A DNA stretch of 64,000 nt, taken from the sequence record OP870146.1; one strand, given 5' to 3'. The DNA is from Escherichia phage vB_Eco_F27. The first letter of the stretch is position 1; every line of letters begins with the position of its first letter. A program made the translations under genes and the position numbers. Positions 4,331 to 40,418 of the stretch are shown here, in pieces. A model generated the notes under the pieces. That model was not told the DNA's origin. It worked only from the letters and a program-made list of their open reading frames with translations, and made no database searches.

Positions 4331-5017
4331 TTAGAAGTCGTGAGTAGAATCGGCTTCCATCGCAATAACATAACTTACTTGAGAGCTTTCAAACTTGGCT
4401 GCAACTTTATCACCAGCTCCCCACAACATTACTTTATAGTTACCTGGCTGGATTTTCATATTAGCCATATTGATTACGAAGTTAAAGTTGTTAGAACCAT
4501 CATAATCGGTAAGAGTCAAAGAATACTTAGGACGAGTTAGTCCGGAATCTTCAACTTTATTATAGCCATTGATAACAATTTTACCATCTTTATTTGTAAT
4601 AGCAATTGTATCAATCTGAAGTCCACGTGAAACTCGAAGCAATTGTTGAAGGTCTTCAGCTTTAATTTCAGTAATCACAGAAGCCACTGGGAATTGAATT
4701 GGCTTATTAGGAAAAACAATGGTGCTCTTGTCGGCAGCAGGCCAATAAACTGTGGAACGTGTATCTGCAATTTTAATATTGCCATCAGTATGCATTGAAA
4801 TTTCGGCATCATCAGACACTAGACTCAAAATGCTTAAGAAGCTATTCAAATCATAAAGTGCTACGTCAAAATCAATTTCATCAGAGATATTTGCTTCCGC
4901 ATAAGTGGTGCCATTAACTGCGCGAGTCATAATAAATTTACCTTGACTCAGCAGAATGCCAGAGTTAATAGAGGCAAAGTTTTTCAGAATAGCGATAGTA
5001 TCTTTAGACAGTTTCAT
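4331..5017 (-). CDS. 45: sliding clamp gp45
   Basis: From the second ATG the product reads MKLSKDTIAILKNFASINSGI, 228 aa as in T4 gp45. SD AAAGGAAAU lies upstream. Confidence 0.93.
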   Translation of the reverse strand: MKLSKDTIAILKNFASINSGILLSQGKFIMTRAVNGTTYAEANISDEIDFDVALYDLNSFLSILSLVSDDAEISMHTDGNIKIADTRSTVYWPAADKSTIVFPNKPIQFPVASVITEIKAEDLQQLLRVSRGLQIDTIAITNKDGKIVINGYNKVEDSGLTRPKYSLTLTDYDGSNNFNFVINMANMKIQPGNYKVMLWGAGDKVAAKFESSQVSYVIAMEADSTHDF

Positions 5018-5059
5018 TTTATTTCCTTTCAAGACAATTCAAAGTTTATAACAAATTTA

Positions 5060-5476
5060 TTACGCAGCAACCATCTGCTTTTTAATAGCTTCAGGCAGTG
5101 ATTCAATATATTCTGGAATTTTAGAAGCAACAATTTCGCCAGCTGCAATTAGTTGTTCGTCGGCATCAACACAGTAAAAATCTTCAAGGCGTTCAGAACC
5201 GTCTTTATCAAGAACGATTTTAGCACCTGCTTCGATAGAATCTTTATAGTGCTTACGCATCAAATGAATCCACATATCAGACACATCGTTATCAATAAAA
5301 CCATAAATCATAAAACGAGTTTCTTGTGGCAAAGATTGGAGTTTTTTAGCACTTGCGTCATCACAATGCAGGACCCATGCTTTACGAACACGATTATGGT
5401 TATGTGGGTTAGCGTCAGTACGGATAGAAGTAACTTTCAGATCAGCAGCAGTGAAACCTTTAGCAGTAGTAAACAT
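5060..5476 (-). CDS. rpbA: RNA polymerase-binding protein RpbA (positional call)
   Basis: 138-aa ORF immediately upstream of gene 45, where T4 carries rpbA. Called from position and size only. Confidence 0.6.
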   Translation of the reverse strand: MFTTAKGFTAADLKVTSIRTDANPHNHNRVRKAWVLHCDDASAKKLQSLPQETRFMIYGFIDNDVSDMWIHLMRKHYKDSIEAGAKIVLDKDGSERLEDFYCVDADEQLIAAGEIVASKIPEYIESLPEAIKKQMVAA

Positions 5477-10845: not shown

Positions 10846-11174
10846 TTTACCGCCTTAACAATTTTCAAGTCAGCGAATTTTTTCTTACGTTGATTTTTCA
10901 TACGACGGATAGTCTTTTCAGAGATTTCATGTTTCTGATAAGCTTTAGATTCAACACCAAATGCAGCAACGTCAAATTCAGAAAGAATATATTGTACTAG
11001 AATTTCGCGAATAGAATTACGTCCAATTTTCTGGTCGTGTTTTTGCATGATTTCATAAAGACGGAATTCCCACGCATCAAGAACTTGAGGAGTAACAATA
11101 TTGCCGGATTCCAGAAGAGCAACAACTTTATCGAAAGCGAAAGAATTAACTACGTTTTTGATTTTAGTAGACAT
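10842..11174 (-). CDS. hypothetical protein
   Basis: ORF 10842..11213. The ATG at 11174 (MSTKIKNV) follows GAGGAAAAUAAU and lies downstream of the promoter at 11212..11241. Confidence 0.6.
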   Translation of the reverse strand: MSTKIKNVVNSFAFDKVVALLESGNIVTPQVLDAWEFRLYEIMQKHDQKIGRNSIREILVQYILSEFDVAAFGVESKAYQKHEISEKTIRRMKNQRKKKFADLKIVKAVK

Positions 11175-11193
11175 ATTATTTTCCTCGGTTATT

Positions 11194-11241
11194 TTATTAT
11201 CCAATGAGAGCATTATACTCTGCTCTCAAGAGTTTGTAAAT
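11194..11241 (-). promoter_or_regulatory. early promoter cassette (PeSL type), near-duplicate of 40442..40489
   Basis: Minus strand: -35 ATTTACA, -10 TATAAT flanked by inverted repeat GAGAGCA/TGCTCTC. 46 of 48 nt are identical to the copy at 40442..40489. Confidence 0.7.
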
Positions 11242-11243
11242 CG

Positions 11244-11444
11244 TTATCCGAACTTTTTAGCGCCTTTCCAGCCTTCGTACATAACTGCGCAAGTCAATAG
11301 CACAGCGTGTTGGCATTCTTTGTATTTGTAAATCCAGAACCAGCGTAAGAAGTCTTCATCCTCAACGCCGTTGAGTTTCATATTGGCAAAGAATTCAGCT
11401 CGTTCTTCGCGAAGTTTTTGAGATAACATAGATTCAGGATTCAT
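11244..11444 (-). CDS. hypothetical protein
   Basis: 66-aa ORF in the gene 55-nrdG spacer region. Confidence 0.55.
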   Translation of the reverse strand: MNPESMLSQKLREERAEFFANMKLNGVEDEDFLRWFWIYKYKECQHAVLLTCAVMYEGWKGAKKFG

Positions 11445-11575
11445 TTTATATTCCAGGCCCCATTTTCATCGATGAACTTAATCCAGTCATTTACAGACCA
11501 TTTAGTTGTATCACCCTTTGGATTAACATTTAAAGTATATAATCCCTGCTTAAAAAGCATTCGTTTGATATTCAT
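11441..11575 (-). CDS. small hypothetical protein (44 aa)
   Basis: The ATG at 11575 (MNIKRMLF) follows GAGGAAAUU. The longer ORF-track form would overlap the upstream gene. Confidence 0.45.
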   Translation of the reverse strand: MNIKRMLFKQGLYTLNVNPKGDTTKWSVNDWIKFIDENGAWNIK

Positions 11576-11582
11576 AATTTCC

Positions 11583-11876
11583 TCAACTGTAACGATAACA
11601 TTCGTTAGCTTTACGTTTGGCTTCAGTATGAGAAGTATTATAATCATACTCTTCTTTACTGTAAACATCTTTTTTCAACTTACGAACTTCTTTGCGGAGT
11701 TGTCGATTCATTTCATTCTTGACTTCAGAATCAACGCCTTTCATACGTTTCCATTTATCTGAGCGGAAAATGTTTTCAACCATGTCTTTGTGGCTAACAC
11801 CGTCAGGAGCTTTACGCTTACCAAAATAGTCGTAATCACGAACTTTCAAATCTTTACGACGATATGTTTTACCCAT
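11583..11876 (-). CDS. hypothetical highly basic protein
   Basis: The ATG at 11876 (MGKTYRRKDLK) follows GAGGUACUU. K/R-rich, 97 aa. Confidence 0.6.
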   Translation of the reverse strand: MGKTYRRKDLKVRDYDYFGKRKAPDGVSHKDMVENIFRSDKWKRMKGVDSEVKNEMNRQLRKEVRKLKKDVYSKEEYDYNTSHTEAKRKANECYRYS

Positions 11877-11883
11877 AAGTACC

Positions 11884-12132
11884 TCAAAGGTTGATTGATA
11901 CAATGCGTTTGATAAAATTCACTTCACTTACTGAAAGGTCTTTAAGACCGATTGATTCTAAACGCTGAGTAAGCGTCAACATCGGGATATAATCCCAATG
12001 AGTTTTATTTGCTTGATAAGTACGAACGCCATTAGCAATTTCAACATACAAATCGGAAATGGTAACGAATACCGGTCGCTCGTCATTAACTTTAAGGGTT
12101 AGAACAACTTTCTTTGAATCTAAACTAATCAT
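11884..12132 (-). CDS. hypothetical protein
   Basis: 82-aa ORF. ATGA overlap with the upstream gene. Confidence 0.6.
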   Translation of the reverse strand: MISLDSKKVVLTLKVNDERPVFVTISDLYVEIANGVRTYQANKTHWDYIPMLTLTQRLESIGLKDLSVSEVNFIKRIVSINL

Positions 12133-34156: not shown

Positions 34157-34612
34157 TTATAGGAGGGTAGTGAGCACCTTATATAATGATTTGCCCATTA
34201 CATATTCCCATTGAGAAGGTTTAATTAAAGCGAATGCATCAAATTCAGGAATCTGACGTCCGTCTGGGAATGTATGATAGGAATTACAAACACTGTTTCT
34301 GAATTGCTCGTGCTCTACAGGGATGGTATATAGGAACAGATGAATATTCTTATTGTCTGAGTAATGATGTTCACCTAGGTCTTTCAGGAAGGCAGGGTCA
34401 TATTGTGTAAACCCAGTTTCTTCTTCGCATTCACGAATAGCGGCTTCAATAGGAGATTCGCCAGGTTCGACACGGCCTTTAGGAATATCCCACCGATGAG
34501 CTAATGCACCTTTAGGACGAGAACCAGTTACACGGCCCATGAATAATTCTTTATCTTTTGTCATGAAGATAATACCAGCGGACAACTCTTTCACTTTATT
34601 TTTCTTACTCAT
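34157..34612 (-). CDS. nudE: Nudix hydrolase NudE (e.1)
   Basis: Nudix box GRVEPGESPIEAAIRECEEETG. 151 aa from the second ATG, adjacent to e as in T4. Confidence 0.88.
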   Translation of the reverse strand: MSKKNKVKELSAGIIFMTKDKELFMGRVTGSRPKGALAHRWDIPKGRVEPGESPIEAAIRECEEETGFTQYDPAFLKDLGEHHYSDNKNIHLFLYTIPVEHEQFRNSVCNSYHTFPDGRQIPEFDAFALIKPSQWEYVMGKSLYKVLTTLL

Positions 34613-34841
34613 CATCTCGGTCCCATGATTTGGCCATTAATTCGGACATAAATTCTTCAATGCGCGTTTCTTTAGATGGACTTTCACTATTAGAGACCGC
34701 AAGTTTGTAATCTGCAATAGGACAGAACATATCAAGGTCCATATTAAGGTCGTCTTTGATTTTTTCTTCTGACACATCTTTATCGTATGTGTACAGATAA
34801 CTATCACATGATTCTGATTTAATGTAAATTGCTATACTCAT
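34605..34841 (-). CDS. hypothetical acidic protein
   Basis: The ATG at 34841 (MSIAIYIKSE) has AGGAA 8 nt upstream. That SD is encoded within the ..ECRN.. tail of the upstream gene. Confidence 0.55.
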   Translation of the reverse strand: MSIAIYIKSESCDSYLYTYDKDVSEEKIKDDLNMDLDMFCPIADYKLAVSNSESPSKETRIEEFMSELMAKSWDRDDE

Positions 34842-35329
34842 CTCAAATTCCTGCATTCGGTAATAAAACGTTCAACTTCATTATTCTTGGCCTTTATCTT
34901 GTCTTTACGTTCCTGTAAACTACTTTTAACAAGATTAATAATGATGCCTACAGTACCTCCACCAATAATACCACCAATAATACTTACAATAGTAGATGCT
35001 AATAAGATAGCGATAATATCTAGTACAGCAAAGGCACTTACTTTAGTACTAAAAAACCATACCGACGGTACAAATATAATCCATCCTGTTATCCATTGGC
35101 ACTTATTGAAAAACTTTTCAAGCTCAGCTTGAGTTGTTCGTATTACTTCATCGATAGGTTGATATCCATTAATGTATCTGTTCACAATAATACCTGCTGG
35201 CTGGTCGATTTTAAATTCTTGGCAAATATGTTTCACTAAGTAGGATGGACATCCTGTCCAATCTACCGAATAATACGAAATACCTTCGTTGCCATCGTCT
35301 ATATTAGACCAATATGTTTTGTTAATCAT
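34838..35329 (-). CDS. membrane protein with ERFITECR C-terminal tail
   Basis: The ATG at 35329 overlaps the upstream TAA. Two TM helices (WIIFVPSVWFF..., LDIIAILLASTIVSIIGGIIGGGTVGIII). Ends ...NNEVERFITECRNLR. Confidence 0.6.
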   Translation of the reverse strand: MINKTYWSNIDDGNEGISYYSVDWTGCPSYLVKHICQEFKIDQPAGIIVNRYINGYQPIDEVIRTTQAELEKFFNKCQWITGWIIFVPSVWFFSTKVSAFAVLDIIAILLASTIVSIIGGIIGGGTVGIIINLVKSSLQERKDKIKAKNNEVERFITECRNLR

Positions 35330-36015
35330 TACCAACCTTCCATAGGGAATTCCAGATAAACTTGGGCATTGACACGAATTTCATTGGTAATCTTTTTAAC
35401 TCGGTCTGTATTACGAGATACACGTCCGAACCAACGCCATCCATTACTAATTGCACGAGAACCAGTGTGCCATGTTTGCCAATCAAACTGAAGAAGAGTA
35501 CGATCTGGAGCTTCCCATTTCTCTAGTTCACCTTTTTCAATTTTTTCGAGGACTTCTTTGTGCCACTGGCGATAGATAAGTTCGCCATCAGGAATCTGAC
35601 TGAACTCTGCAGTTCCTGTTGCAAAATGAGTAGGACACACATCAGCGTTAACAAGACCAAGAATATGTTCAGACAAATAGCGAGGATTGTCATAATCAGG
35701 TTGTCCTGCAGTAATAAAATGTTGTCCTGTTGGAATATCTGGGCGTGGTACGTCATCATGGTGATATCCAGGAATAGCAGGGTACCAACCAGGCATCAAC
35801 ATGTGGACTCGTGAATCAAATACTACATCCGAGTCTTTCCAATCGTCAGGGAGATTTTGAATAAAGCTACGAGTAATTGGGCCGCCATTATCAAAAGCAA
35901 AATTCAAATCGCAGTTAAAGAACATAGGCTCGTTTTTAATCTGGTCGTTTTTAATCGCATGAGCAAAACCACCTACTGCACGAGCTTGACTATTAAACAC
36001 TTTAGAACTATTCAT
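35329..36015 (-). CDS. hypothetical protein, possible Fe(II)/2-oxoglutarate dioxygenase fold
   Basis: 228 aa. PGYHHDD (HxD-like), a distal WHTG His, then GRVS (RxS) 14 residues later. This is the pattern of the 2OG-oxygenase facial triad plus 2OG-binding Arg. Motif-level evidence only. Confidence 0.35.
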   Translation of the reverse strand: MNSSKVFNSQARAVGGFAHAIKNDQIKNEPMFFNCDLNFAFDNGGPITRSFIQNLPDDWKDSDVVFDSRVHMLMPGWYPAIPGYHHDDVPRPDIPTGQHFITAGQPDYDNPRYLSEHILGLVNADVCPTHFATGTAEFSQIPDGELIYRQWHKEVLEKIEKGELEKWEAPDRTLLQFDWQTWHTGSRAISNGWRWFGRVSRNTDRVKKITNEIRVNAQVYLEFPMEGW

Positions 36016-36016
36016 A

Positions 36017-36322
36017 TTATTTTCCTCGACATTCTTTAATGAAATTTTCTAGATTGGTAGATTCAATAGCTTTTTTACGAGCTTCAACATGTTCTTCTTC
36101 AGACAATTTACATTTATAATTGACCCAGACATTATGGTCGAAACTAGTCGTGGCATATAATAACAAAGCTCCGACGAATAATAAAAACGGTGATAAGAAT
36201 ATACAACCAGGCACACCATCCATACTGTAAGCCTTTTGTAATACTGCAACAGAAAGAGTTGCGTAAAAAAGTGATGCAAATATTGTTAAAAGACCAATTC
36301 GGTTGGTTTCGCCTAATTTCAT
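36017..36322 (-). CDS. membrane protein with ENFIKECR C-terminal tail
   Basis: 101 aa with two TM helices. Ends ...STNLENFIKECRGK. The next gene's ATG lies 2 nt after the stop. Confidence 0.6.
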   Translation of the reverse strand: MKLGETNRIGLLTIFASLFYATLSVAVLQKAYSMDGVPGCIFLSPFLLFVGALLLYATTSFDHNVWVNYKCKLSEEEHVEARKKAIESTNLENFIKECRGK

Positions 36323-36350
36323 AATATTCTCCTCATGTTTTAATAGGACT

Positions 36351-36380
36351 ACTATAACATAGTCCTATAATTGTGTAAAC
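36351..36380 (-). promoter_or_regulatory. early promoter cassette (PeSL type)
   Basis: Minus strand: GTTTAC, 18 nt, TATAGT. Inverted repeat ATAGGACTA/TAGTCCTAT surrounds the -10. Confidence 0.65.
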
Positions 36381-36392
36381 AGTTTTGCGAAA

Positions 36393-37349
36393 TTATTTGA
36401 AAGGTTTTACCATATGGAAATTTTGTTTGAAACGTTTGACGTAATCGTCATGTCCTAAGCTTTGGTACATACTTACTACTTTGCTGTAGTTTTCCCAGGC
36501 GTATTCACGGAACCAACCGGAGGTGATGCTTGTGCAGACTTTTTCTAATGCCATCATGAAACTGGCTTCAGGGTTAATTTTAAAGTCATTAGGAATCTGA
36601 GAACGTTCTAATGCTAGTACACATGATTCTTCATATACACCGGCCAATTTGACCATTTCTGGTAACGATTCGAACTTCTCGCGTGAGGTCATGACTTCAG
36701 AACCGTCTTTCATATAAAATGTATAAGCCGGACGGTCTGTTAGTGCAATGGCTTCATGAATAGTATCATGGTCATATGTATAGATGTCATCTTTAAAGAA
36801 CGCACTTTTAGAAGTGTCAAGAACCGGGTGAGCATAGTTCAAGGTTTCTTTCTGGCGTTTCAGCATAATTTCAGTAAGTTCATCGTTCAGTGTAACACCT
36901 TTACCACGAAGATACTGAATATGGTTCATAGTCTTTAAAAAGAATGGATTATTTTTCTTGAAACGATGAGACATCTTAATTGCAAGACATATCTCAGGAG
37001 TTGCCCAGTAAAACCCGTTCAAACGGTCTTTAGTCAAATTTTTCTTGGCGTATTTTAAAAGGTCATAAGAAGACGTGAAATCTTCAGGAGTGAGTTCACC
37101 GACTAATTCACGGACATTAGTGATTGCCGGAACAATATATGCTTCAAAATGAGTTTCGCGTCCATTATGGAAGCATTTGAAAACTTGGACATCAGGGTTA
37201 TCTTGGTGAACATATACACCCATCATTTGATTTTTGAATGCATTCCAAGAACCTTGGTCCGCAATAAAGTCCCAATCGCTATTTTTGATAGCGCTAGAAT
37301 CAATAAGACCATGATAGTGAAGTGCACGAGAACCAATAACTAACATCAT
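36393..37349 (-). CDS. hypothetical protein, possible nucleotidyltransferase-fold N-terminus
   Basis: 318 aa. VIGSRALHYHGLIDSSAIKNSDWDFI loosely fits G[GS]-x(n)-DxD. Confidence 0.4.
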   Translation of the reverse strand: MMLVIGSRALHYHGLIDSSAIKNSDWDFIADQGSWNAFKNQMMGVYVHQDNPDVQVFKCFHNGRETHFEAYIVPAITNVRELVGELTPEDFTSSYDLLKYAKKNLTKDRLNGFYWATPEICLAIKMSHRFKKNNPFFLKTMNHIQYLRGKGVTLNDELTEIMLKRQKETLNYAHPVLDTSKSAFFKDDIYTYDHDTIHEAIALTDRPAYTFYMKDGSEVMTSREKFESLPEMVKLAGVYEESCVLALERSQIPNDFKINPEASFMMALEKVCTSITSGWFREYAWENYSKVVSMYQSLGHDDYVKRFKQNFHMVKPFK

Positions 37350-37377
37350 AATATTTTCCTCGGATTAATTCATTAAC

Positions 37378-37617
37378 TTAAATTTCACGACATGCGATAT
37401 TATATTCGTCCCAGAGGTCATCGTGTGAAGCCTCTACCAATGGAACGATTGTACCGTTTATGTCTTCATTATAAGGGCAAATTGTACAGTGCGCATCTTC
37501 GAATCGGATGCCTTTGTGTTCAGATTTTTTATAACGCATATCGAATATCTTTGCAAACTTTTCACGAGTAATGGTTTTAGCAACCACTTTGGTTCCGATA
37601 CTTTCGTAATAAATCAT
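37378..37617 (-). CDS. hypothetical protein
   Basis: The ATG at 37617 (MIYYESIG) has GGAG 7 nt upstream. The first ATG at 37629 lacks an SD. Confidence 0.55.
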   Translation of the reverse strand: MIYYESIGTKVVAKTITREKFAKIFDMRYKKSEHKGIRFEDAHCTICPYNEDINGTIVPLVEASHDDLWDEYNIACREI

Positions 37618-37645
37618 TGTGGACTCCATTTAATTTGATAGGACT

Positions 37646-37675
37646 ACTATAACATAGCCCTATCTTGTTGTAAAC
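37646..37675 (-). promoter_or_regulatory. early promoter cassette (PeSL type)
   Basis: Minus strand: GTTTAC, 18 nt, TATAGT. Inverted repeat ATAGGGCTA/TAGTCCTAT. Confidence 0.65.
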
Positions 37676-37679
37676 TGTT

Positions 37680-37877
37680 TTAGCAAGAATAACTAGATGA
37701 TACCCAGCCTTGAACAGTGATACTATTATGGGATAATGAGATCGCGTCCTGGAGATTCAGACCTGCGTTATCTTCAATCCATAATGTAACTTCTTCGCGT
37801 TCTTCTGTTGCAATTTGGAACAGGTTTTCCAGAGCAGCTACTGCCGTACGTACAGCACAATCTAATTCACGAGACAT
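37680..37877 (-). CDS. WVSS-x-x-C tail family protein, paralog 1
   Basis: 65 aa ending GWVSSSYSC-stop. Third member of a tandem paralog triplet. Confidence 0.65.
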   Translation of the reverse strand: MSRELDCAVRTAVAALENLFQIATEEREEVTLWIEDNAGLNLQDAISLSHNSITVQGWVSSSYSC

Positions 37878-37886
37878 ATTGTTTCC

Positions 37887-38159
37887 TTAGCAAGTGTGAG
37901 AAGATGCGACCCAACCACCAGTTTCGAGGCTCAGGTTGTAGTCGTATTGGTAAACGTCAGCCCATTCAGCATAGCCGTTTTTTGTACAACGTTCAAGATC
38001 GGCTTTAAGATGTCCGGGTGAATGATAGGTTCCACCCATACCATAAGCTGGATACAAGTCGAATGTTGTGTTTTGTTTATCAGCAATTTCTTTGGCAGCC
38101 TCAATAGCTGCATAGATTTTTGCTACAGCTTCAGCCAGTTCGGTTTGTTCTTTAGACAT
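37887..38159 (-). CDS. WVSS-x-x-C tail family protein, paralog 2
   Basis: 90 aa ending GGWVASSHTC-stop. Shares the A..I...I..A..IAD....F......YG.G.TY..G core with paralog 3. Confidence 0.65.
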   Translation of the reverse strand: MSKEQTELAEAVAKIYAAIEAAKEIADKQNTTFDLYPAYGMGGTYHSPGHLKADLERCTKNGYAEWADVYQYDYNLSLETGGWVASSHTC

Positions 38160-38168
38160 AATGATTCC

Positions 38169-38474
38169 TTAGCACAACGCAGAAGACGAAACCCAAGCAC
38201 CTTCAGTAATAACGTAACCATTACCTTCACGCTTAACATCGCCACCATTATTTTCAATTTCATCTTTCATCCACTGGGATACGATTTCACCCTTAGGATA
38301 ATAAGTACGACCACTACCATAATCACCTACAGAAAATGATACGGCATATTGGTCTGCGATCTTTGTTGCTTCTTCTTCGATACGTTCAGCTTGATTCAGA
38401 AGTTTATAAATTGCATCTGAAGCGGATTTGGCATCATTAAACTCTGGTACTTTAATTTCAATAATCTTACTCAT
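38169..38474 (-). CDS. WVSS-x-x-C tail family protein, paralog 3
   Basis: 101 aa ending GAWVSSSALC-stop. Confidence 0.65.
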   Translation of the reverse strand: MSKIIEIKVPEFNDAKSASDAIYKLLNQAERIEEEATKIADQYAVSFSVGDYGSGRTYYPKGEIVSQWMKDEIENNGGDVKREGNGYVITEGAWVSSSALC

Positions 38475-38830
38475 TTTCTACATTCCTTAATAAAGTTTTC
38501 GATTGTTTCATTTTCACGTCTAGCTAGGAGTTCATTATAACTAATCGTTTGAGAAGCGTAAACCTTTTTATTTTTCTTGTTGTGGTTTATAAAATCGTAG
38601 TAAAAATAGACTACAGTACAAAATGATGCGATGGATGCAAAGGCTTGGGTATACCGTAAGTCCTGCCATTGGTCTGTGAATCCACCAGTGTTCCCTATAA
38701 ATCCTAACACAACGCCGTCAATAAGAAATCCAACTAATCCAAAGGCAAATCCCATGCCAATACTCATAATAAAAATTAGAATGTTCTCACCAAGAGAAGG
38801 CCATACGGTTAAGAGTTGAGGCTTTTGCAT
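38471..38830 (-). CDS. membrane protein with ENFIKECR C-terminal tail
   Basis: 119 aa with three hydrophobic helices. Ends ...ENETIENFIKECRK, and the stop overlaps the next ATG (AAAUGA). Confidence 0.6.
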   Translation of the reverse strand: MQKPQLLTVWPSLGENILIFIMSIGMGFAFGLVGFLIDGVVLGFIGNTGGFTDQWQDLRYTQAFASIASFCTVVYFYYDFINHNKKNKKVYASQTISYNELLARRENETIENFIKECRK

Positions 38831-39204
38831 CTTATTTCCTTAACGAATTCCATAGCTTCTTCATATTCATACTTTTTAACAGCTTCATCATACTGAGCTT
38901 GGGCTTTTGCGCACTGAACTTTCCATTCGCGTACTCGAGCTCTATAATGACGGCCTTGGTGCCAATATCCTGCCCAATTAATAGGCATTAATAAAAATGG
39001 CACAATAAACGGCCCGGCTATAATAAGTAAAAACACTGCATCAGACGATATAACTTCACTAGAATCTAAAACAGCTCCTATAATCATAAAGATTAAAAAT
39101 GCTAAAGCTAAAATAGGGCCAAATAGTACTTCATTTGGGATTAATTTACGTTTGTATTCGTATGCCCAGGGCTTAATTGGCATGTACAGGGTTGGCTTTG
39201 ACAT
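38809..39204 (-). CDS. membrane protein with EFVKEIRC C-terminal tail
   Basis: The ATG at 39204 (MSKPTLYMPIK). Two TM helices. Ends ...YEEAMEFVKEIRCKSLNS with the next ATG embedded in the tail. Confidence 0.55.
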   Translation of the reverse strand: MSKPTLYMPIKPWAYEYKRKLIPNEVLFGPILALAFLIFMIIGAVLDSSEVISSDAVFLLIIAGPFIVPFLLMPINWAGYWHQGRHYRARVREWKVQCAKAQAQYDEAVKKYEYEEAMEFVKEIRCKSLNS

Positions 39205-39775
39205 ATTCTCTACATTCCATAATAAATTGCTCAAGGATTAAATTGTTAGTGAAATTAGGACTAACAACCATAGTTTCATAAAGCGCATCAATAGCACTTA
39301 AAGCATCAACTCTTTTAAGCAAAGGCTTGCCTTCATACATAGTTTCAGAATCGATGATTAACGTAAAGTAATATTTTTTATTATCGACTAGAACTTCCGT
39401 ATCGATATAAAACATATTAGACCTCAGAAGCTTATCTCTAAAACCATAATAATCTTCAGAGCGTTCGCTGATATATTCCCATTCAGTGTTTAAACAACAA
39501 ACAGACCATGTAGGAGCAACGAAATCGGTGAATCTAATATCATGGTCTGCAACTAGTTTAGCAATAGCTCCGATATCATGAATCATAATACCTGGGGCTA
39601 ATAAAGATTTTCTGCTATGGCTAGCCGTTTTCTCAGTAGTCTCATAAGAAGACGACCAGTACCATTTACGTCCAGTTGCAACATATCGTAATGAATCAAC
39701 TAAAGATGTAGGTGGATTTACCTTATCTCGGAACTCTTCGAACATTGAGTCAATATCATTATTTTGGTTTCGCAT
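39173..39775 (-). CDS. hypothetical protein with QFIMECR near the C-terminus
   Basis: The ATG at 39775 follows AAGGAG. 200 aa ending ...LILEQFIMECREYVKANPVHAN. The next gene's ATG lies just after ECRE. Confidence 0.6.
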   Translation of the reverse strand: MRNQNNDIDSMFEEFRDKVNPPTSLVDSLRYVATGRKWYWSSSYETTEKTASHSRKSLLAPGIMIHDIGAIAKLVADHDIRFTDFVAPTWSVCCLNTEWEYISERSEDYYGFRDKLLRSNMFYIDTEVLVDNKKYYFTLIIDSETMYEGKPLLKRVDALSAIDALYETMVVSPNFTNNLILEQFIMECREYVKANPVHAN

Positions 39776-39792: not shown

Positions 39793-39816
39793 CCAAAAGG
39801 AGGACCGGAGTCCTCC
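39793..39816 (-). terminator. hairpin terminator
   Basis: Minus-strand GGAGGAC-UCCG-GUCCUCC followed by UUUUGG, 8 nt after the stop of the PspA-like gene. Confidence 0.55.
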
Positions 39817-39824
39817 GTATTATT

Positions 39825-40418
39825 TTATTTCAAAGAGTTAATATATTCTTGTACATCAGCAGAAGTGGTTTCGACGCCGGCTGGAGTGCCATTGAACGTT
39901 TCAACACGAGTCAGAGTGTCTTCGATATCAACCTTAGTCAGTGCAGCGATTTCAATTACATCATCGGCCGTAGAGATACCAAGGGCATTGGCTGCTCGAG
40001 TTTCACGAATGTATTCGAGTTTGATTGCCAGGTTCTGACGAGCATCGTCAAGTTCAACCACCTTACGAGCAATTTCAATTCGCATAGCGGCATACCCGTC
40101 AGCTTTTGTATTAAGTTGTTCGGCAGTTCGACGATACAGAAGACCAAGCTTAGCATGCATGGTAACATCTTGTCCTTCAGCCAGGAGCTTACGAATTTCA
40201 CGTTCCTTAGAAGCGGCTTGCTTGTTCTTTTCATTAACAAGTTCGCGAATACGTTTTTCTTCATTAATAGATTTAACAGAAGCCGTTTTTAGTTCTTTGA
40301 TTTGGGTAATCAACTTATCTGCAGCTGCGTTATACTGTTCTTCGACAGTCAGATTTTTAGCCATAGCAGTACCAAGTTTAGTGCGGATGAATTCAACAAG
40401 TTTCTTCAGTGTGTTCAT
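39825..40418 (-). CDS. long coiled-coil protein, PspA/IM30-like
   Basis: 197 aa from the ATG at 40418. Continuous heptad-rich helices resemble PspA in size and layout (compare [13 protein letters not shown] with PspA LSETRARQQALML). Similarity judged by eye only. Confidence 0.35.

Follow-up and report, generated by a model that had tools for sequence, protein, structure and literature searches.

A conserved C-terminal peptide on otherwise unrelated phage proteins and its possible role as a docking tail

The proteins encoded by five genes in the 64,000-nucleotide stretch of DNA analyzed here (the window), which comes from Escherichia phage vB_Eco_F27 (OP870146.1), an RB69-like Mosigvirus, end in the same short peptide, although their bodies are dissimilar, and this tail is conserved at the protein level. 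The best reading, which we put forward tentatively, is that the tail forms a helix by which the carriers dock onto one shared partner, the candidate being the product of the neighboring gene e.6.

Tail carriers and occurrence of the motif

The five carriers are the counterparts of RB69 e.2, ORF133c, e.3, e.4, and e.5. The coordinates given for them in an earlier note hold, as does its claim of a shared C-terminal motif, one of the five (e.4) carrying a variant. All of them, like every other feature located below, lie on the minus strand. The e.2-type membrane protein (163 aa; 34838..35329) ends in ERFITECRNLR, a strict tail (V-E-R-F-I-T-E-C-R-NLR, coded at 34850-34867) in which AGGAA, across the Arg codon and the codon that follows, is the Shine-Dalgarno (SD) sequence of the downstream ATG. 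This ATG overlaps the e.2 TGA stop, and the start of the RB69ORF130c homologue (78 aa; 34605..34841) is coupled to the e.2 tail. The RB69ORF133c homologue (101 aa, two hydrophobic segments; 36017..36322) has the strict tail L-E-N-F-I-K-E-C-R-GK (coded at 36026-36043), and the RB69ORF132c homologue (228 aa; 35329..36015) starts 10 nt past its Arg codon. The e.3 membrane protein (119 aa; 38471..38830) likewise ends in a strict tail, I-E-N-F-I-K-E-C-R-K (coded at 38477-38494); at this junction AAG GAA serves as the SD sequence and ATGA is the stop/start overlap, coupling the tail to the start of the first of three paralogues ending in WVSSSxxC (38169..38474). The e.4 membrane protein (131 aa; 38809..39204), with the C-terminus EFVKEIRCKSLNS, carries the variant M-E-F-V-K-E-I-R-C-KSLNS (coded at 38830-38847), in which Ile occupies the Cys position and a Cys is found two positions later; the ATG of e.3 sits within its Arg-Cys codons (AGA TGC). 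Finally, the soluble e.5 protein (200 aa; 39173..39775) has the strict tail L-E-Q-F-I-M-E-C-R (coded at 39209-39226), after which 11 more residues overlap the e.4 start (C-terminus QFIMECREYVKANPVHAN).

When the entire 64 kb was scanned in six frames for F[IVLM]xE[CI]R, exactly five matches came up, all in the carriers and none elsewhere, each 1-11 residues from the stop, and the stricter F[IV]xECR gave 4 matches against 0.01-0.03 expected. Specifically, the expectations for the loose and strict patterns were 0.33 and 0.03 in 200 second-order Markov simulations, and 0.11 and 0.008 when the residues of the long ORFs were shuffled; none of the simulations produced as many matches as the 5 and 4 observed.

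The same position was found on searching T4-like genomes, as the earlier note had suggested. In 45 loci from at least eight genera, the coding-strand stop-to-stop ORFs of at least 60 codons (271,310 residues) contain 152 matches to [FW][IVL]xxC[RK]; 149 of them are no more than 15 residues from a stop, and the remaining 3 are 21 residues from it. The opposite strand of these loci has 24 matches, of which only 5 are close to a stop. Across the whole T4 genome, coding-frame matches near a stop occur only in e.5, e.3, and the 3' remnant of e.2, with one further near-stop match in an opposite-strand frame and one internal match in the six frames. The motif is therefore strictly C-terminal, and each genome encodes 3-6 otherwise unrelated proteins that carry it.

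Level of selection and use of the tail at gene junctions

The tail consensus is Φ-[E/N/D]-x-[F/W]-[I/V]-x-x-C-[R/K]. After it come 0-15 residues, most of them basic, and in distant phages as many as 28. Of the "ECR" motif originally proposed, the C-[R/K] core is conserved; the Glu before the Cys is limited to three genera, and neither it nor the "KE" seen in the window belongs to the conserved motif. Since the e.4 lineage has I, V, M, A, or S at the Cys position, Cys is not essential in every carrier.

Comparing synonymous with non-synonymous variation, a check proposed at the outset, places the conservation at the level of the protein. In 119 distinct tail contexts, codon entropy is approximately zero at first and second positions and near its maximum at third positions: Phe is encoded by TTT (86) or TTC (29), Cys by TGT (65) or TGC (54), and Arg by AGA (37), CGT (31), AGG (21), CGA (9), CGC (8), or CGG (1). 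Within the window, ORF133 and e.3 encode the same ENFIKECR peptide with four synonymous codon differences. Synonymous sites are saturated, and therefore it is the peptide that is selected, not the DNA.

The selected residues also have the character of a helix. Hydrophobic residues occupy positions -3, 0, +1, and +4, that is, i, i+3, i+4, and i+7, a spacing that fits a two-turn amphipathic helix; Pro and Gly together make up 2.9% of the tail segment, and its mean hydrophobic moment is 1.48, compared with 0.91 in shuffles. Such periodicity would also be expected if there were no separate partner, the tail being either an amphipathic helix on the membrane surface or a helix joining the carriers together. 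The basic residues after the motif (mean net charge +1.7 over +4 to +9), the many membrane proteins among the carriers, and the acceptance of I, V, M, or A at the e.4-type Cys position are in keeping with this alternative, and the acidic residues at -2 and +3 would fit tail-to-tail self-association. However, those acidic residues are common and should disfavor binding to anionic lipids, and a membrane tag adds little to proteins that already have transmembrane anchors. In addition, C-terminal membrane-targeting helices such as those of MinD and FtsA are defined by composition, and we know of none in which F, C, and R are nearly invariant and a fixed distance apart, as they are in the tail. We regard this alternative as unlikely, although the carriers may associate through their tails.

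The tail is, at the same time, part of the gene junction. In the window, the next ATG begins 8 (e.2), 10 (ORF133), 2 (e.3), -1 (e.4), and 4 (e.5) nt from the Arg codon, and the description of the motif as lying directly against the next start is correct for that reason. The sole SD-like sequence upstream of those starts (AAGGAA, AGGAA, or GAGGAA) is within or just past the motif, so that tail codons double as the SD sequence of the next gene, as had been noticed. A survey of 108 distinct junctions across genomes shows where this dual use is found. When the ATG lies no more than 6 nt past the Arg codon, the two variable positions are K-E, K-G, or E-E and their codons are purine-only in 29 of 34 junctions, versus 5 of 74 when the ATG is farther away. 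The variable positions thus become purine-rich SD codons only where the next start abuts, a use of the two free positions that follows from the tight packing of the genes.

These data allow two translational explanations to be weighed. If the motif were kept for its SD sequence and coupling context, the peptide would be a by-product; the proximity of all five window motifs to the next ATG, the purine-only codons at abutting junctions, and the e.5-type genes, which keep the next start near the motif though their ORF reads on, all agree with this. Yet coupling fails to explain the conserved residues, because Φ, F, I/V, C, and R/K lie over saturated synonymous sites. These residues do not form SD sequences, Arg is encoded by both AGR and CGN, and SD-like codons are confined to variable positions with an adjacent start. 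Moreover, the motif is retained at junctions with 29-84 nt before the next start and in ORFs that run 25-28 residues further, and the five junction RNAs have no significant fold (z-scores of -1.2 to +1.4). We consider this explanation very improbable. Nor do we give much more than nominal weight to a nascent-peptide effect, in which the tail would slow termination or elongation from within the exit tunnel and thereby tune re-initiation on the next gene. The strictly C-terminal, peptide-level conservation is what such a mechanism predicts, and in many genes the motif lies 1-3 codons before a stop that overlaps the next start; but the register of known arrest peptides is fixed, whereas the distance from the motif varies from 0 to 28 residues to the stop and from -1 to +84 nt to the next start. 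Ordinary coupled overlapping genes resemble the tail junctions in their stop/start overlap (ATGA or TAATATG) and in an SD sequence that lies within the final codons of the preceding gene. They differ in that no specific peptide is conserved across unrelated upstream genes, while at tail junctions the SD sequence takes up only the two positions that the peptide motif leaves free.

Carrier bodies, paralogy, and recombination

The carriers were described as otherwise dissimilar, and all-against-all blastp of those in the window confines their similarity to the last 9-23 residues. Four of the five are membrane proteins, as the earlier note says, and e.5 is soluble. By hydropathy analysis, e.5 has no long hydrophobic stretch, and the families of e.2, ORF133, and e.3 have one or two; inspection of the e.4 sequence suggests two. 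In the membrane carriers, the tail comes after a Lys/Arg-rich linker that is presumably cytoplasmic.

Could the tail be ordinary family conservation, the carriers being deep paralogues that arose by tandem duplication and are now recognizable only at the C-terminus? The e.2 family profile (phrog_2203) aligns over its C-terminal half with ORF133 (E = 2e-5), tandem near-identical tails occur in other genera (e.g., NWIKGCRK beside NWVKGCRK, and DFIKNCRR beside NFIKSCRK), and the membrane carriers are built alike, with transmembrane segments, then a charged linker, then the tail. Nevertheless, without their tails the carriers split into approximately 23 blastp clusters, about half membrane and half soluble, and nearly all pairs have no homology detectable by blastp clustering or hhalign. 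The latter joins only positional orthologues, giving probabilities of at most 15%, or alignments of only 8 columns, for other pairs. The unlinked bodies do not support full-length paralogy, and the same tail is found on soluble proteins of 180-316 aa and membrane proteins of 88-130 aa. We find this explanation improbable, and even if true, it would leave the constancy of only these nine residues unaccounted for.

The earlier note also proposed a portable recombination joint, and part of this proposal stands, since two natural in-frame gene losses have occurred by crossover within the repeated junction. Specifically, a Tequatrovirus contig (L010) lacks e.2, the crossover lying inside TGCAGGAAA, which is common to the e.3 and e.2 tails, with a 30-nt stretch that aligns to both. 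L017, L019, and L021 lack e.4, and their e.5-type protein has the hybrid tail ECREYAKEVQNGTA, with a 21-nt stretch aligning to both junctions. That the repeat is maintained so that cassettes can be lost, gained, or swapped in frame is, however, a doubtful proposition to which we assign little credence. Window tails agree at no more than 17-21 of 27 nt, and their identical runs are 5-10 nt long; selection for homology would be expected to leave the reverse of saturated synonymous sites; only deletions were found, with no gain or swap; and in phiC120 and LF82-1 the deletion that affects e.3 falls inside the gene, away from the tails. Recombination at these junctions is therefore a real evolutionary consequence of their repetition, not what maintains the motif; tight gene packing makes the repeats an occasional microhomology for in-frame gene loss.

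The candidate partner e.6 and known systems

All tail carriers are encoded in a cluster that starts with e.6 (197 aa; 39825..40418). An automatic test detects the motif in the ORF that follows e.6 at 44 of 46 loci. The other two also encode the tail and were missed, one because the gene is frameshifted and one through an artefact of start calling. Because e.6 anchored the collection of most loci, this co-occurrence is partly built in, and it is also confounded with phylogeny. The link is kept in Aeromonas phages and Pseudotevenvirus, in which e.6 lies beside nrdD/nrdG or gp31/cd rather than nudE, and the one Pseudotevenvirus nudE neighborhood examined contains no tail carrier. Co-regulation, and not contact, may underlie the synteny. 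Between e.6 and e.5 lies a terminator-like hairpin (39799..39816), which counts against the contact reading.

The predicted structure of e.6 (pLDDT 76) has an N-terminal helix and a hairpin of 55-60 residues (helices at 3-22, 25-80, 86-145, 166-175, and 186-196), and the model is most similar to PspA/Vipp1: the top eight Foldseek matches in the PDB are all either Vipp1 structures or 6zvr, a Vipp1/PspA entry (E = 3e-4 to 2e-2, probability 1.0). One GenBank record labels an e.6 homologue "shock protein A". At the sequence level, e.6 has no match in Pfam or the PDB, profile search included, nor to the Pfam PspA_IM30 model, and hhalign against an E. coli PspA sequence gave a probability of 0.15%.

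Since selection acts on the peptide and the tail is always found in an e.6-headed cluster, it is probably a common docking tag. According to this docking reading, the hydrophobic face (Φ, F, I/V, and C) and the basic residue that follows would bind one common partner, for which we infer e.6, with its long helical hairpin, to be the candidate, and varied membrane anchors and a soluble protein would thus be plugged into the same complex. The evidence points to this neighbor, and none of it to superinfection exclusion or lysis control, the functions previously suggested.

The nearest known systems are LiaI-LiaH of Bacillus and PspB/PspC-PspA of enterobacteria, in which small membrane proteins have cytoplasmic tails, as the membrane carriers presumably do, and are encoded beside a protein of approximately 200 aa with a long hairpin, as the carriers are beside e.6 with its predicted hairpin. 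Such anchors bring the PspA-like protein to the membrane, as LiaI does for LiaH (PMC9239133). The membrane carriers may similarly be small anchors recruiting a PspA-like e.6, as LiaI does LiaH and PspB/C do PspA. The tail carriers do not belong by sequence to the PspB, PspC, or LiaI families, and they differ in that several unrelated anchors and a soluble protein have one explicit C-terminal peptide. To our knowledge, no such shared peptide has been described for Psp or Lia systems.

Two T4 systems are also comparable. T4 internal proteins have an N-terminal capsid targeting sequence, closing with an (L/I)xE site cut by the gp21 protease, which is likewise a short conserved peptide on hypervariable proteins from the same plastic regions. 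Its E-F-I/L-x-E resemblance to the tail is superficial, given that the tail is C-terminal, has C-[R/K] as its hallmark, and does not conserve its Glu beyond three genera. The peptides that bind the gp45 sliding clamp are C-terminal on T4 polymerase, gp33, gp55, and RNase H, so that unrelated proteins share a short C-terminal docking peptide for one partner, as we propose for the tail; they differ from it in sequence, and many tail carriers are membrane proteins.

A common C-terminal tail on dissimilar proteins

The window belongs to a Mosigvirus; over this region, identity reaches 98% with phage mogra and 97% with RB69. Named after the RB69 annotation, the genes bearing the tail (the carriers) are e.2 (34838-35329), ORF133c (36017-36322), e.3 (38471-38830), e.4 (38809-39204), and e.5 (39173-39775), all on the minus strand, and they sit between nudE (34157-34615, minus strand) and e.6 (39825-40418, minus strand). 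The translated C-termini match the spelling in the earlier note, which had described a tail common to five genes and abutting the next start codon; the latter holds at all five junctions, where the spacing from the Arg codon to the next ATG is 8, 10, 2, -1, and 4 nt. When all six frames of the full 64 kb were searched, F[IVLM]xE[CI]R was found at exactly five sites, each 1 to 11 residues ahead of a stop, and F[IV]xECR at four. Simulation predicts 0.33 and 0.03 sites for the two patterns, and residue-shuffled long ORFs give 0.11 and 0.008.

It was conceivable that the five carriers are full-length paralogues sharing ordinary family conservation. By blastp, however, their resemblance is confined to the final 9-23 residues, and each belongs to a different PHROG family, although ORF133 also matches the e.2 family over its C-terminal half (of the family; E = 2e-5). 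No window carrier matched a family in the local Pfam copy. With tails removed, the 138 distinct carriers from the collected phage loci form about 23 blastp clusters, and hhalign comparison of the tail-less family alignments linked only positional orthologues (probability 60-71% among e.5-position families and 38% for e.3 types). These results argue against full-length paralogy, while very deep paralogy could still connect the carriers. Of these clusters, about 13 contain long hydrophobic stretches (one or two), and about 10 are soluble. In the membrane-type clusters, the tail starts 13-68 residues past the last hydrophobic stretch, after a Lys/Arg-rich linker which, by the positive-inside rule, suggests that the tail side is cytoplasmic.

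Searches of Pfam, NCBIfam, and PDB sequences matched no carrier, e.6, or the RB69ORF132c homologue. Single-protein searches with e.5 returned only near-identical clusters and the T4 type, too few for a deep alignment, and its model is poor (pLDDT 56.6); recurrent Foldseek matches of this model to small alarmone synthetases were insignificant (E at least 0.01, TM 0.2), and that assignment was rejected. The e.5 cluster of a large protein database carries a precomputed Pfam family, PF26876, which is absent from the local Pfam.

The tail extends to other phages. In T4, it is present in e.3 (KEFVIDCRKIK at the stop) and e.5 (EKFVKECREYVK) and, in its variant form, in e.4 (KFVKESRCKSQS at the stop), and in SP18 (Gaprivervirus) and CIP9 (Kanagawavirus) it occurs on the same genes and on others (for example NSFIEECRK, ETFIKECKS, DKFIKQCRRNQNVS, and DKFVKGCRNGRN, all directly before the stop). 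Sampling of loci was anchored on the conserved e.6 and gave 34 viral contigs with e.6 identity from 100% to 55%. Across 45 loci, [FW][IVL]xxC[RK] matched the coding strand 152 times in 271,310 ORF residues; 149 matches lie within 15 residues of the stop, three lie at 21 residues, and none is internal, compared with just 5 near-stop matches among 24 on the opposite strand. There are 102 distinct tails and three to six carriers per genome. In the complete T4 genome, near-stop coding-frame matches are confined to e.3, e.5, and a leftover 3' piece of e.2 that lacks annotation, with one chance match on the other strand.

Loosening the pattern to any hydrophobic residue in place of Cys is unspecific by itself (21 C-terminal vs 66 internal matches in T4), and the membership of e.4 therefore rests on synteny and on conservation across the e.4 family. 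The thymidine kinase C-terminus, YVSLCRKHW, was rejected as a chance match. A 46-sequence tail profile run against the large protein database gave only 16 candidates and 3 matches, a motif-only search being uninformative because E-values are scaled to 5.8 billion sequences and nine residues cannot reach significance.

The same cluster contains other conserved features. Three tandem small paralogues on the minus strand (37680-37877, 37887-38159, and 38169-38474) end in G-x-W-V-[S/A]-S-S-x-x-C right before the stop (QGWVSSSYSC, GGWVASSHTC, and GAWVSSSALC). This W-V-S-S-x-x-C end is a second C-terminal signature, unrelated to the tail; other genera have three to seven copies with the same C-terminal Cys (e.g., WVSSSMEC, IWYPSSC, and FWFNSSMSC). 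In most cases GGAA comes directly after the stop, and the resulting TAAGGAA serves the following copy as its SD. Of the window paralogues, two match phrog_899, the 65-aa copy matches phrog_4882, and none of the three has a Pfam family. In every Tevenvirinae genus examined, the RB69ORF132c homologue (35329-36015, minus strand, 228 aa) shows very strong conservation, with a nearly invariant C-terminus (VNAQVYLEFPMEGW at the stop), and always lies just upstream of the e.2-type gene.

Peptide-level selection and the use of gene junctions

Across 119 distinct contexts, the entropy of the conserved codons is about zero at positions 1 and 2 and near its maximum at position 3. Phe is encoded by TTT (86) or TTC (29), Cys by TGT (65) or TGC (54), and Arg by AGA (37), CGT (31), AGG (21), CGA (9), CGC (8), or CGG (1). 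Within the window, ENFIKECR is identical in ORF133 and e.3 despite four synonymous differences, and the four strict tails agree at no more than 17-21 of 27 nucleotides. Selection on the motif thus acts at the level of the peptide. An effect of the nascent peptide is a further, improbable reading of such a tail.

Counting from Phe as position 0, the consensus has L/I/F/V at -3 (103 of 119 contexts) and E/N/D at -2; F/W and I/V come next, and after two free positions the motif closes with C and R/K. The Glu of the "ECR" noticed initially is limited to three genera (Mosig-, Tequatro-, and Gaprivervirus); elsewhere G, S, N, Y, H, Q, M, L, or D stands ahead of the Cys. The spacing of the hydrophobic residues (-3, 0, +1, and +4), the near absence of Pro and Gly, and a raised hydrophobic moment indicate a two-turn amphipathic helix followed by basic residues. 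In e.4-type proteins, I, V, M, A, or S replaces the Cys, so that this position acts as one more residue of the hydrophobic face. A less likely alternative to docking is that such a helix associates with itself or binds the membrane. MinD/FtsA-type C-terminal membrane-targeting helices are defined by composition, being basic and hydrophobic without fixed residues; the tail is amphipathic with trailing basic residues, yet its F, C, and R are near-invariant at fixed spacing and acidic residues are frequent.

All five window junctions have the geometry of translational coupling, with the stop within a few nucleotides of the start and an SD inside the upstream ORF, and an SD-like AGGAA, GAGGAA, or AAGGAA lies within or immediately past the motif. 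Across genomes, the distance from the Arg codon to the next start is usually 1-10 nt, reaching 84 nt, and in 14 of 108 junctions the next start lies at least 29 nt past the stop; between Arg and the stop there are 0 to 15 residues, or 25-28 in distant phages. Where the next start is no more than 6 nt away, K-E, K-G, or E-E fills the free positions, with purine-only codons in 29 of 34 cases, as opposed to 5 of 74 where it is farther away. The two unconstrained positions thus take on the SD as the spacing requires. The proposal that the tail doubles as an SD therefore stands for this window but does not explain the conserved residues. An ATG inside GAATGY as an ancestral start or start-stop mini-ORF was discarded, given that T4 e.3 reads GAT TGC there and that codons differ again in other genera.

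Folding of the junction RNAs revealed no unusual fold and no RNA structure. In T4-type genomes, PeSL cassettes consist of an intergenic early promoter and stem-loop flanking shuffled genes; the tail is not such a cassette, since it lies inside coding sequence and without RNA structure. Separately, the window holds a near-identical pair of 26-nt palindromes at ~36343-36379 and ~37638-37674 (ATAGGACTACTATAACATAG[T/C]CCTAT, plus strand), upstream of ORF133 and ORF135, which overlap an early-promoter-like TTTACA-17-TATAGT on the minus strand and look like cassettes of the PeSL kind.

Two natural whole-gene losses, both in frame, have their crossover inside the repeated tail/SD/ATG junction. In a Tequatrovirus contig (L010, 11880-11960), e.2 is gone and the e.3 tail reads GAT TGC AGG AAA / TTA AAA TGA, a fusion to which the e.3 tail contributes its 5' part and the e.2 tail its 3' part; a 30-nt stretch aligns to both T4 sites. 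Loci L017, L019, and L021 (~11141-11200) are without e.4, and their e.5-type protein has a hybrid end (FIAECREYAKEVQNGTA at the stop) whose 21-nt stretch aligns to both junctions of locus L014; L015, L016, and L018 also are without e.4, with variant endings. These hybrid tails show that the repeated junctions act as microhomology for in-frame cassette loss. The earlier note had proposed a recombination joint, and this much of the idea survives; given the low DNA identity of the tails, we read recombination as a consequence of the repeats rather than as the cause of their upkeep. Selection for coupling or recombination is an unlikely alternative.

Remnants of carriers also occur. In phiC120 and LF82-1 (locus positions ~4990-5090), e.3 has an internal deletion and a frameshift, and its start and last ~90 nt survive as an unannotated remnant that retains the tail and the next gene's SD. 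In the T4 reference, e.2 (102 aa) has been truncated or split, whereas the Tequatrovirus loci L011-L013 have it intact at 162 aa; the e.2-nudE "intergenic" gap of T4 (NC_000866, ~67,490-67,650) holds a 53-codon remnant with the e.2 tail (NNFITECRKLK at the stop) that abuts nudE. The annotated T4 NudE start (MQEIKM...) is an ATG inside the GAA TGC codons of the tail, and the second Met, overlapping the TGA stop, has a better SD.

Linkage of the tail to e.6

Of the 46 loci in which e.6 is complete, 44 have the motif in the last 30 residues of the ORF that follows e.6; a frameshift in e.5 accounts for one exception, and an artefact of start calling for the other. We found e.6 in 1124 phage records, among them Aeromonas phages and Pseudotevenvirus, in which it lies among nrdD/nrdG or gp31/cd genes and the following gene still bears the motif. 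Examples are the 288-aa protein of AS-gz (IEMFVDYCRRTAPKRE at the stop), ORF268 of RB43 (LEKFIHSCKKNV) and gp256 of SemperBestia (316 aa, MEKFIHSCKKNV), both 25 residues ahead of the stop, and the 227-aa protein of avDM6 (LQDFIKECRDIF), where the next gene encodes a 197-aa protein with LRRFVNECRLLV. The nudE neighbourhoods of Miller (Pseudotevenvirus), PM2 (Bragavirus), and Klebsiella phage Roth41 contain no e.6 and no carrier. Altogether, these results suggest that the tail travels with e.6 rather than with nudE or e. In avDM6 (11222-12019), two small membrane proteins encoded downstream of the e.6/e.5-type genes end in a related signature of different spacing (KLFEECNTLPRINLKQW and RIFLECTNPKSVTWEKW, each at the stop).

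A strictly C-terminal, peptide-level amphipathic motif is thus present on unrelated membrane and soluble proteins, always in a cluster headed by e.6.

A candidate partner and comparison with known systems

The AF2 model of e.6 (197 aa; 30-sequence alignment, pLDDT 76) has helices at 3-22, 25-80, 86-145, 166-175, and 186-196, that is, an N-terminal helix, a hairpin of 55-60 residues, and two short C-terminal helices. This layout matches the PspA/IM30/Vipp1 architecture (N-terminal amphipathic helix, long alpha1 / alpha2-3 hairpin, short C-terminal helices, about 200-220 aa). Proteins of that family, part of the ESCRT-III superfamily, assemble into rings or rods and bind or remodel membranes. 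When the model was compared with the PDB by Foldseek, Vipp1 and the Vipp1/PspA entry 6zvr took the first eight places (E = 3e-4 to 2e-2, probability 1.0), with PspA 7abk and CdvB2 at lower ranks. At the sequence level, Pfam (PspA_IM30 was sought) gave no match for e.6 and 10 homologues, the PDB gave none for e.6 as single sequence or profile, and hhalign against E. coli PspA gave 0.15% probability; one GenBank record calls an e.6 homologue "shock protein A". We treat the predicted Vipp1/PspA likeness as a lead.

We propose that the tail would dock, as a helix, onto a single partner, for which e.6 is the most plausible candidate, and that the membrane carriers, which adjoin this PspA-like candidate and have hydrophobic segments with a cytoplasmic side suggested solely by the Lys/Arg-rich linker, would serve as its anchors. 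Their role would be comparable to that of LiaI, the anchor for LiaH (PMC9239133). No carrier, including e.2, ORF133, e.3, and e.4, had an above-noise Pfam or NCBIfam match that would make it a PspB, PspC, or LiaI member. A broader picture, which we consider unlikely though worth stating, is that T4-like phages encode their own PspA/ESCRT-III-like membrane system, with an e.6 core addressed by the C-terminal code Φ-D/E-x-F-I-x-x-C-R; varying small membrane anchors and the soluble e.5-type proteins would share this plug, and by gaining or losing tail-bearing cassettes the phage could change the place and timing of e.6 action at the inner membrane of the host.

The genes e.2-e.6 belong to the many T4 genes without known function, and the tail offers one approach to all of them, predicting that they work together in a single complex and pointing to the residues worth mutating and to e.6 as candidate partner. 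If e.6 is truly Vipp1/PspA-like, the phages would have a system of their own for maintaining or remodelling membranes, with adaptors that are modular. The junctions further illustrate dual coding, in which free positions of a peptide motif are recruited as the ribosome-binding site of the next gene, and show how repeated gene ends can lead to in-frame loss of an intervening gene in plastic regions of T4-type genomes.

Searches of open-access text found nothing relevant on the function of e.2-e.6, the motif, or a phage-encoded PspA. The T4 capsid targeting sequence is N-terminal with an (L/I)xE cleavage site; the shared tail is instead C-terminal, and its Glu is unconserved outside Mosig-, Tequatro-, and Gaprivervirus, so the analogy to a capsid targeting sequence or gp21 protease site (I-x-E) was rejected. 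A short docking or targeting peptide shared by several proteins is a known principle, whereas this tail, its link to e.6, and the placement of an SD in its free positions appear to be new.
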